Shown: positions 29,801 to 32,800 of the stretch, in pieces
Numbering within the stretch: the stretch's first letter is position 1
Layout of the letters: every line of letters starts with the position of its first letter
Assembly (NCBI GenBank): GCA_046563655.1
Contig: CM102288.1
Location: 2,480,001-2,544,000 of the forward strand
Source of the DNA: Yuukianura sp. NJ FZ-2021
Taxonomy: Eukaryota
DNA length: 64,000 nt
Reading direction: 5' to 3'
The notes under the pieces: generated by a model
What the model saw: the letters and a program-made list of their open reading frames with translations, nothing else
Databases searched by the model: none
What the model was told of the DNA's origin: nothing
Program-made: the position numbers and the translations under genes

Positions 29801-32800
29801 TCATTTTGGGAGATCCAGGACTTGGCAAAAAGAAGAAAAGCAAATCAAAGAAGAAGGACGACGAGTTTGTATTGTAAGAATAATTATTTTTTCTTCGATA
29901 CTTTTATGTTTGAAATCAGAATTATCAATTGAATTGTTTTATTTTAGCAAACATTACCAACCACCTCCGGACAAACCTATTAGCAGCTTGAGCAAGAAGT
30001 ACGAAACTCAGCCATTCTTCATCAACGAAGAAGGTGGATTGGCTCTTCACGAGTATCAATTGGAAGGTCTCAACTGGCTTCGGTACTCTTGGGGACAAGG
30101 AACAGACACGATTTTGGCAGGTACTGTTCAAACCTGCATCGTCTTGCTTGGAGAACTGAACTCCTTATTTTAGTAACCTCATTCAAAAGTATAAGATTTG
30201 AGAAGCTGGCGTTGAACTTTTGCAGATGAAATGGGTCTTGGAAAAACTATTCAGACGATTGTATTCCTCTACTCTCTGTACAAAGAGGGACATTCCAAGG
30301 GCCCCTTCCTCGTCAGTGCTCCGCTGTCAACAATTATCAACTGGGAACGTGAATTTGAAGTTTGGGCTCCTGACTTTTACGTTGTAACGTACATTGGAGA
30401 CAAGGATTCCCGAATGGTCATTCGAGAAAATGAGATCTCATTTGAAGAGGGAGCAGTACGAGGAGGACCGAAAGCGTGTCGGATCAAGGGCTCCGTGAAG
30501 TTCCACGTTCTGCTGACATCTTATGAATTGATTGCAATTGATGCTGCTTGTCTCGGATCAGTGGAGTGGTCCGTTTTAGTTGTGGATGAAGCTCATCGGT
30601 TGAAAAACAATCAGTCGCGGGTAAAGATTCCATTCAACTTTTTTTCAGTTTCGTGGAATCCGATTCCGATTTCTTAAAAACTTCAGTTTTTAGAATTTTT
30701 TTGTTTTTTTTTTTTAGTTTTTCCGAGTGTTGAACAACTACCAAATTCAGTATAAGCTGCTACTTACTGGAACGCCGCTGCAGAACAACTTGGACGAATT
30801 GTTCCATTTACTCAACTTCCTTTGTTCCGACAAATTCAATGATTTGCTGTCTTTTCAAAATGAGTTTGCGGATATCAACAAGGAAGATCAAGTGAAGAAG
30901 TTGCATGACATGCTTGGACCGCACATGCTGCGCCGACTCAAAGCTGATGTGCTGAAGGTAAATGTGCTGGAATCAGCTTTGTTACTTTGTATAGACTTGC
31001 TTACTGATGCTGACATTGATGTGGGTTTATGACAGAACATGCCGTCAAAGTCAGAGTTTATCGTTCGGGTTGAACTTTCTCCAATGCAAAGGAAATACTA
31101 CAAATGGATCCTTACCAGAAATTTTGAAGCTCTGAATTCCAAGGGTGGCGGACATCAAGTTTCTCTGCTGAATATTATGATGGATTTGAAGAAATGTTGC
31201 AACCATCCATACTTATTCTCGTCAGCAGCAATGGAAGCTCCAACTCTTATCAATGGAATTTACGAAGTCAATGCTCTGACAAAAGCATCCGGGAAATTGG
31301 TCCTACTTCAAAAAATGCTCCGAATTCTGAAGACCCAAGGACATCGAGTCCTCATTTTCTCACAAATGACAAAAGTATTGGATCTTCTTGAAGATTTTCT
31401 GGAAGGAGAGGGGTACAAATACGAGAGAATTGATGGAGGAATTACAGGAAGTTTGAGACAAGAAGCAATTGACAGATTTAATGCTCCGGGAGCCAAACAA
31501 TTTGTTTTCCTGCTGTCAACACGATCTGGTGGACTTGGAATTAACTTGGCTACTGCTGATACAGTAGTTATTTACGATTCGGACTGGAATCCACACAATG
31601 ACATCCAAGCATTTTCTCGAGCTCATCGTATTGGACAAGCCAACAAGGTTATGATTTATCGGTTCGTGACGAGGAATTCCGTGGAAGAACGTGTAACGCA
31701 AGTGGCTAAGAAGAAGATGATGTTGACACATCTTGTTGTAAGGCCAGGAATGGGCAAAGGTGGAAATTTTTCAAAACAAGAACTGGATGACATTATCAAG
31801 TTTGGAACGGAGGAACTTTTTAAAGATGAAGAGGGCAAAGCGGATGAAGCGATTCATTATACTGATGAGGCAGTGAAGGAACTCCTGGACAGATCTAAAG
31901 AAGGGGTGGAGCAGAAGGAGAGTTGGGCCAATGACTACTTGTCGTCGTTCAAAGTGGCGAGCTATGCAACAAAGGAAGGAGATGACGTAAGTTTGATTAG
32001 ATTTTTAGAACAAAGTATGAAATTTTTTAATTTTTTGCATTTCTGATTTTCAGGACGAAGACTTGGACACGGAAGTTATCAAACAGGAAGCGGAGAATAC
32101 TGATCCTGCTTACTGGGAGAAGCTACTGCGACATCACTATGAACAACAGCAAGAAGATTTGGCTCGTTCTTTGGGCAAAGGGAAGCGTGTTAGGAAGCAA
32201 GTGAACTACAATGACGCAAATGACGGCAGAGATGACAACACTTGGCAGGACAATGTGTCAGATTACAATTCGGACTATTCGGCTCCATCTGATGATGACA
32301 AGGAAGATGACGATTTTGATGACAAGAATGATGGTAAGGGAACAATATTTAGCGAATTTCAATGAATGTGGAGCAATGCTAATGAAAACTTAATTTGGTT
32401 TGTTTTAGAATTGGGACCGAGAGGAAGACGAAGACGTGGATTGGACCGTCGCGAAGAAAAAGACCGACCATTGCCGCCGCTTCTGGCTCGTGTTGGTGGA
32501 AATATCGAGGTAAACTGGCCATTTCCTTAATGCTTTTTATAAGCTCTTTTGGTTGAAAAGTCGTCAGTTACCCGAACTCCGAGTTTTGAAAGTGGAGCGA
32601 ACTCGGTCTGAGATTGACGTAAAACAATGGGATCTCATTTAGAGCTGTCTGATACAGTTTCATCAGAACTTAAGCTAAAGGCTTGTCCCAACAGCGTTTG
32701 AATTTATTCCTAGTTTTTCTGGAATTTTTGAGTTTGGAATCTGAGTTTTGAGATTTGTGTGTTTGACAGGTACTTGGATTCAATGCGAGACAGCGGAAGG

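Follow-up and report, generated by a model that had tools for sequence, protein, structure and literature searches.

A predicted box H/ACA RNA in a Mi-2/CHD4 intron, a candidate guide for U5 loop 1 and putative counterpart of SCARNA11

Introduction

The closest described relatives of the RNA presented here are guides for a pseudouridine (Psi) in loop 1 of U5. The human small Cajal body-specific RNA (scaRNA) scaRNA11, also named ACA57, is listed in a table of PMC6466398 with U5-43 as its target and CHD4 as its host gene, and PMC7960923, in the part used here, assigns U5 Psi43 to ACA57 and gives the conserved U5 loop with its modified residues. In chicken, GGgACA29 lies in CHD4 intron 33 and, according to the entry in PMC2653536, has a U5-43 guide of 4+6 nt in the 3' hairpin, while its 5' hairpin is predicted to guide 28S-1612. 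In Drosophila, pugU5-44 (scaRNA:PsiU5-44) co-precipitates with WDR79 and was localised to Cajal bodies (excerpts of PMC3884663; also of PMC8522698); its guide activity was unconfirmed in those assays of PMC3884663 that the excerpt covers. Here, we analyzed a 64,000-nt stretch of contig CM102288.1 (the window, in whose coordinates all positions are given, on the + strand unless said otherwise) and describe a predicted box H/ACA scaRNA at 32560..32696 (+), which lies in an intron of a Mi-2/CHD4 chromatin-remodeller gene and whose 3' hairpin carries arms complementary to U5 loop 1.

Box H/ACA guide RNAs are a class known for changing hosts, and to our knowledge few scaRNAs have been annotated outside vertebrates and Drosophila. 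We take fly U5-44 to be the same position as human U5-43, the fly numbering being one higher. Within the library that we searched, no paper linked Mi-2 with a U5 guide in invertebrates. The element had been proposed before from the DNA letters, without database searches (the sequence-only reading), and the parallel drawn on that occasion, human ACA57/SCARNA11 guiding U5 Psi43 from CHD4, agrees with the table of PMC6466398.

Results

Predicted structure and guide arms

The predicted scaRNA (32560..32696) has a length of ~135-137 nt, with an approximate 5' end and a 3' end placed at ACA+3, and was identified by its fold, by the statistics of its guide pattern and by homologues at other loci. Both the minimum free energy (MFE) and the centroid structure from ViennaRNA show a hairpin-hinge-hairpin-tail architecture, in which two hairpins are joined by a hinge of 8 nt. 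In the MFE structure, the 5' hairpin (32562..32619, +) consists of a lower stem (32562-32569/32612-32619, +), an upper stem (32579-32586/32599-32606, +) and a pocket (32571-32579 and 32607-32611, +) closing 14 nt upstream of the H box. This box is found in the hinge at 32621..32627 (+), where AAAACA or AAACAA each fit the H box consensus ANANNA. The 3' hairpin with the pseudouridylation pocket (32628..32690, +) is defined by the MFE structure and by covariation in a nine-sequence alignment (below), and it is followed by the ACA box (32691..32693, +), whose position relative to the 3' end is a prediction only. The sequence-only reading had described a hairpin-H-hairpin-ACA element with a 3' pocket of TTTAG and AAAGGC at 14 nt from ACA, and every part of this description was recovered in place.

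The 5' guide arm UUUAG (32638..32642, +) would pair with the target just 3' of two unpaired residues, and the 3' guide arm AAAGGC (32677..32682, +) would pair immediately 5' of the target uridine. From the first A of AAAGGC to the ACA box the distance is 14 nt; in H/ACA RNAs, 14-16 nt separate the pocket base from the H or ACA box. The apical loop of the same hairpin contains ACAG (32654..32657, +), a candidate Cajal body (CAB) box, the consensus of which is an AG dinucleotide in an apical-loop tetranucleotide. A search of both strands of the window yields a single match to TTTAG-N20-50-AAAGGC-N8-ACA, against 0.03 expected, and a match was present in 3 of 100 shuffled sequences; the guide pattern exceeds chance. 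The two arms match UUAG/AAAGGC of the Rfam SCARNA11 consensus and of a vertebrate-type locus described below (L073), and the guide offers 5+6 potential pairs with U5. The pocket is complementary to U5 loop 1 around Psi43 in the loop sequence of other species' U5 as given in the part of PMC7960923 used here.

The host intron (32510..32769, +; 260 nt, GT..AG) lies between an upstream exon (32409..32509, +) that ends with ...GGNIE and a downstream exon (32770..32861, +) that starts with VLGFNARQ..., both read from the sequence and translated. From the predicted 3' end of the scaRNA (32696), there are 73 nt to the 3' splice site.

Recurrence in other Mi-2/CHD4 genes

The comparison was based on metagenome contigs fetched via another conserved exon, which lies just downstream at window positions 32939-33250. 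A pattern was matched by 593 stretches, 83 of which encoded a relative, and 80 Mi-2/CHD4 loci were kept; the labels given to them are best named protein matches from a small panel and express likenesses only. An intron at the codon position of the window's intron, with a length of 81-2176 nt, was present in 18/80 loci, while the flanking exons abutted in 33/80 (spliced transcripts or intron-less genes); the upstream exon was undetected in 14/80 and the downstream exon in 15/80. The element was found in the orthologous intron of seven of the 18 intron-bearing loci (L001, L002, L018, L028 and L078-80), corresponding to 5/16 distinct sequences, with L078, L079 and L080 being identical over the 300 bases compared. 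In addition, L054 carries it just upstream of the same VLGF exon. The closest relative of the window is L001, which has 100% identical flanking exons and an element with UUAG and AAAGGCG. By best named match, L002 (85-86%) and L028 (91-92%) are hymenopteran-like, L018 is mite-like (Dermatophagoides, 73% of 1589 residues) and L078 is ascidian-like (Phallusia, 96% of 51 residues; 70% of 263), and L054 is unplaced. The intron position ...GGNIE/VLGF... (the slash marks the intron) is common to arthropod-like and ascidian-like (chordate) genes and is therefore the likelier ancestral site.

A loose regular expression (TTTAG ... AAAGG ... ACA) gave 13 matches in 2 x 488 kb. Seven of them are on the coding strand, either within this intron or immediately before the VLGF exon (window, L018, L028, L054 and L078-80), and six lie elsewhere; the match at L057 662-713 has neither a lower stem nor a model match and was counted as background. 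Among the loci, the strict pattern matched only L028, L054 and L078-80.

The stems were analyzed in an alignment of nine sequences fitted to a covariance model (A5). Standard pairs fill 85.5% of its 145 stem cells, compared with 56.0% in shuffles, of which 0/500 reach the observed value, and sliding the partners by 1-3 columns reduces pairing to 37-54%. In 17/18 pairs, changes occurred on both sides. The unaligned sequences show the pairing as well: their lower stems are unlike in sequence and yet pair (GGGAU/GUCCC, AAGUAUC/GAUGCUU, GUGGGAAG/CUUUCCAC, UUGACCA/UGGUCAA and CGACGU/ACGUCG), with ACA located 14 nt after the 3' arm in each. UUAG is present in eight of the nine aligned sequences, which are all those keeping ACA (AUAG in L002), AAAGGC likewise in 8/9 (AAUGGC in L032) and ACA in 8/9 (UCA in L002). 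The distance from the pocket base to ACA is 14 nt in the window, L001, L018, L028, L054, L073 and L078 and 13 nt in L032, and L002 has its UCA at 14 nt. An nnAG motif occurs in the 3'-hairpin apical loop of 9/9 sequences, in 5/9 of them as ACAG or UCAG; chance alone often places an AG in a loop of ~10 nt. A second hairpin precedes each 3' hairpin in the homologues; as read by eye, the hinge hexamer fits ANANNA in L001, L018, L054, L028 and L002, while AAAGUG of L078 does not fit and L032 has none.

Between the window and L001, identity amounts to 40% and 47% in the two intron flanks, 51% in the 5' hairpin and 71% in the 3' hairpin with ACA. The sequence-only reading had named a lack of conservation and covariation in related species as a reason to abandon the proposal; what we found instead is recurrence in the orthologous intron, covarying stems and invariant arms. 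At the level of these alignments, the pattern shows purifying selection on the guide arms and on pairing.

A covariance model built only from L018, L028, L054 and L078 (R1) found L002 at 1215-1279 in the same intron (36.6 bits, E 4e-7), L032 at 1540-1601 (20.6 bits), L073 at 3313-3375 (18.8 bits, E 0.07 over all loci) and L001 (18.5 bits). The L073 match links this search to the vertebrate family. Rfam at gathering scores was run on 13 of the 80 loci, namely nine element-less intron-bearing loci, from which L003 and L030 were left aside, and L045, L052, L053 and L062. One family was matched, SCARNA11 at L073 3235-3374, with 69.1 bits against a gathering score of 37 bits (RF00564). The 3' hairpin of this SCARNA11 is the same stretch chosen by R1, with UUAG/AAAGGC arms and ACA 14 nt after the 3' arm. 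The best named protein match of L073, a vertebrate-type CHD4 segment, is a bird CHD protein, and the locus served as positive control for SCARNA11 and as vertebrate reference for the intron position.

As to the 5' hairpin, its pocket arm ACCCGAAC is identical in L001 though the upper stem changes. A second guide function is possible for this hairpin; its pocket is not conserved between phyla, and no target was identified for it.

Besides that, contigs of three further organisms cover the region. Relative to the window, organisms A and B have at least 14 differing positions and a 4-nt deletion in the neighbouring 76-nt intron (within 32871-32921), and the organism A contig spanning 32407-33200 has 17 differences in all. 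Going by the differences listed, the scaRNA intron appears far less variable than this neighbour in the comparison. The contig of a third, more distant organism was aligned at its exons, with intron size alone being readable: it has 271 letters for the 252-nt stretch compared here, and its neighbouring introns measure 81 and 101.

Evidence against the proposal and alternative explanations

A number of results weigh against reading the element as a U5 guide that has long resided in Mi-2/CHD4, and they are collected here together with the alternatives to which they lend weight. At gathering scores, Rfam matched no family anywhere in the window, and the SCARNA11 model (RF00564) gave no match at E <= 10 in window 32450-32800 and none at E <= 5 in seven invertebrate-type loci; the Infernal comparison with Rfam SCARNA11 and H/ACA models that the sequence-only reading had suggested as a check did not detect the window element. 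Four matches around it at E <= 10 (DdR16, snoR64a, sR58 and SMAD5-AS1_2) were discarded as junk. The fold energy is no better than that of shuffled sequences (z = -0.52, with 60/200 shuffles folding as well) and no different on the reverse strand, so that the fold alone is not beyond chance; H/ACA RNAs with large open pockets usually have an ordinary fold energy. The fitting of the nine-sequence alignment to a model favours pairing. The target U5, in addition, is presumed to continue with three A residues after the loop. What stands of U5 loop 1 as the target named in the sequence-only reading is the complementarity of the arms to the published loop. The z-score and the missing Rfam match are what one would expect from a chance H/ACA-like fold combined with a chance match to U5. 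We regard such a coincidence as scarcely conceivable, given a guide pattern expected 0.03 times per window, and the recurrence in the orthologous intron of five other distinct sequences and in L054, together with the compensatory stem changes, already contradicts it.

The covariance models score the window copy poorly. With R1 it reached 14.7 bits (E 0.15), below a spurious match of 16 bits, and with R2, a model built from eight sequences, 14.9 bits; both models recover the metagenome homologues but add no support for the window copy itself. The spurious match, the best that R1 found in the window (45211-45276), proved to be an ordinary intron of 75 nt together with the start of an exon and was rejected as an RNA gene. 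Moreover, 11/18 intron-bearing loci are without the element at this position (L003, L030, L032, L037, L044, L047, L050, L056, L073, L074 and L077); in the ant-like L030, an intron of 238 nt is empty. Two insect- or hexapod-like introns, L002 1215-1279 and L003 ~1070-1150, keep AAAGGC and a paired lower stem, with a degraded 5' arm and with UCA exactly at the expected ACA site, 14 nt after the arm. These copies may be decaying guides caught at stages of loss, and their apparent loss looks like a fit to the relocated fly guide. The weaker copy at L032 1540-1601 (UUUUUAG/AAUGGC, ACA at 13 nt, a hinge without an H box) is located in a third intron, RKKV/QEFE, after ...IRKKV and not at ...GGNIE/VLGF..., and could represent a paralogue, a relic or a relocated copy.

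Decay in L002 and L003 and the poor model scores raise the question of whether the window copy is itself a conserved-looking relic, no longer expressed or functional, with another locus supplying the U5 guide, as in Drosophila. This is a very improbable account of a copy in which both stems, the H box and ACA at 14 nt are intact and the two arms retain their 5+6 potential pairs. Likewise, L001 retains every functional element though its flanking intron is only 40-47% identical, and the window's intron still has 3.4 times the length of its neighbours.

The comparison with vertebrates and the fly bears on the age of the association. In the vertebrate-type L073, the ...GGNIE/VLGF... intron is 81 nt long and empty, and SCARNA11 follows exon 3021-3167, which ends with ...TPSTPG. 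This position corresponds to the inside of the window's uninterrupted exon 32938-33880, ~165 codons downstream, and because the vertebrate copy resides in a different intron, common descent needs a move within the gene. A guide-host pairing kept between vertebrates and this arthropod had been part of the sequence-only reading: the Mi-2/CHD4 host and the arms are the same, whereas the host intron differs, and the comparison of intron positions proposed with it, for which L073 was used, did not yield the same intron. In the supplementary entries of PMC13228274 used here, fly scaRNA:PsiU5-44 (139 nt) is placed at chr2R:14602985-14603124 and a Mi-2 site at chr3L:19886070, from which it follows that the fly guide is not hosted in Mi-2.

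These locations could also reflect a real U5 guide whose mobile H/ACA copies inserted independently into one and the same gene, which is long and has broad expression. The vertebrate copy in another intron and the weaker L032 copy in a third would fit this, as would a fly guide elsewhere in the genome according to the supplementary entries, the near absence of similarity between phyla outside the guide arms and the failure of Rfam SCARNA11 to find the invertebrate copies. Against it stands the use of the very same intron by collembolan-, hymenopteran-, mite- and ascidian-like loci. All copies, furthermore, lie within ~165 codons of one gene, and the spacing of 14 nt and the guide's location in the 3' hairpin are likewise shared. 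The arms themselves are fixed by the target and therefore cannot discriminate descent from insertion. The title of one study reportedly speaks of ongoing intragenomic mobility of small nucleolar RNAs (snoRNAs). On balance, we consider repeated insertion unlikely, and the reading of the element as an old resident of Mi-2/CHD4 is the one developed in the Discussion.

Host gene and its introns

The host gene is a Mi-2/CHD4 orthologue on the + strand (27618..34600, approximate limits), as identified by open frames, tblastn and protein matches. Its open frames encode PHD, chromo, SNF2 helicase and CHDCT2-type sequence, and tblastn with Folsomia Mi-2 as query spans 27879-34580. Among the 17 named proteins compared, the host protein is closest to that of the collembolan Folsomia candida (61.7% over 1999 aligned residues), beetles and wasps come next, and none is a close named relative. 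Toxocara appeared as a top match owing to a duplicated domain in that record, and a nematode reading was rejected after the per-protein comparison. Mi-2 as the host, as proposed in the sequence-only reading, is borne out by the open frames, by tblastn and by the best named matches to arthropod Mi-2, and its assignment to an arthropod is plausible with a collembolan as the best named match and insects next.

The neighbouring introns measure 75 nt (32334-32408, +) and 76 nt (32862-32937, +), and two more introns of the gene, read directly, 82 and 73 nt. Elsewhere in the gene, gaps between high-scoring segment pairs of 46-158 nt are consistent with short introns. The host intron, which had been called oversized, is so indeed: its 260 nt compare with 73-82 nt for the four measured introns and correspond to 3.4 times the length of its neighbours. 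As a separate observation among the surveyed loci, an intronic hairpin at L028 8045-8115 matches mir-33 on both strands (36.9 and 35.2 bits), below the gathering score of 50.

Discussion

We consider an intronic H/ACA guide for U5 loop 1, a counterpart of SCARNA11 with an old residence in Mi-2/CHD4, to be the best joint explanation of these data and hold it with good confidence. Its parts carry different weight. Recurrence and covariation make it highly probable that we are dealing with a genuine box H/ACA gene that has been conserved. Most likely, it guides the U5 loop-1 pseudouridine, and by its predicted guide it is a functional counterpart of SCARNA11/ACA57. It is probably also orthologous to SCARNA11, with a residence in the host gene that would predate the split between arthropods and chordates. 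For the fuller history we have a slight preference only: the U5 guide would have resided in Mi-2/CHD4 since before the protostome-deuterostome split, originally in the GGNIE/VLGFNARQ intron, would have hopped within the gene in vertebrates, and would have decayed or left in some insects including Drosophila.

Following what is established for intronic H/ACA RNAs, the scaRNA would be transcribed within the Mi-2 pre-mRNA and assemble with dyskerin, Nhp2, Nop10 and Gar1, and splicing and trimming by exonucleases would free it as a ~135-nt RNA. By their sequence, AAAGGC and UUUAG can clamp U5 loop 1 and leave two residues, U and A, unpaired where the upper stem begins, 14 nt from ACA. The unpaired loop-1 uridine, position 43 in human and 44 in fly U5, would then be converted to pseudouridine. 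Targeting to Cajal bodies would be in keeping with H/ACA biology, to which the nnAG in 9/9 apical loops adds slight weight. Over evolutionary time, the guide would have been kept in Mi-2/CHD4 since before arthropods and chordates separated, with vertebrates now using another intron ~165 codons downstream.

The added value of the finding lies in this evolutionary pattern. From the sole fly guide for this position in U5, a relation to the vertebrate host was not apparent. Recurrence in arthropod-like, ascidian-like and vertebrate Mi-2/CHD4 would represent a concrete, datable example of a guide RNA that has long resided in a single protein-coding gene. This opens the questions of whether host fidelity is selected and of how an intronic guide passes from one intron to another within a gene, and the UCA variants may show how guide copies decay. 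If true, host fidelity would point to selection for co-expression of Mi-2 and the U5 modification, or suggest that the intronic ribonucleoprotein takes part in processing the host transcript. In practical terms, the finding offers a simple rule by which to annotate this scaRNA in newly sequenced invertebrates, for which the Rfam model fails.

Among the known systems, fly scaRNA:PsiU5-44 differs from the window element in its location: the fly gene has the same predicted target position and a similar size, but in the entries used here it lies outside Mi-2 and is not an orthologous locus. Chicken GGgACA29 has in common with it the CHD4 host and a U5-43 guide in the 3' hairpin; its 5' hairpin is predicted in the PMC2653536 entry to guide 28S-1612, while no target was found for that of the window. 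From vertebrate SCARNA11, the window element differs in being undetected by the Rfam model, in having no sequence similarity outside the arms, and in an arm with one potential pair more (UUUAG). In other respects the two agree: vertebrate SCARNA11/ACA57 is a box H/ACA RNA with its guide in the 3' hairpin, its consensus and the L073 copy have UUAG/AAAGGC arms with ACA 14 nt after the 3' arm, and it is hosted in Mi-2/CHD4, with U5 Psi43 as the target assigned to it in the tabulated and excerpted sources.

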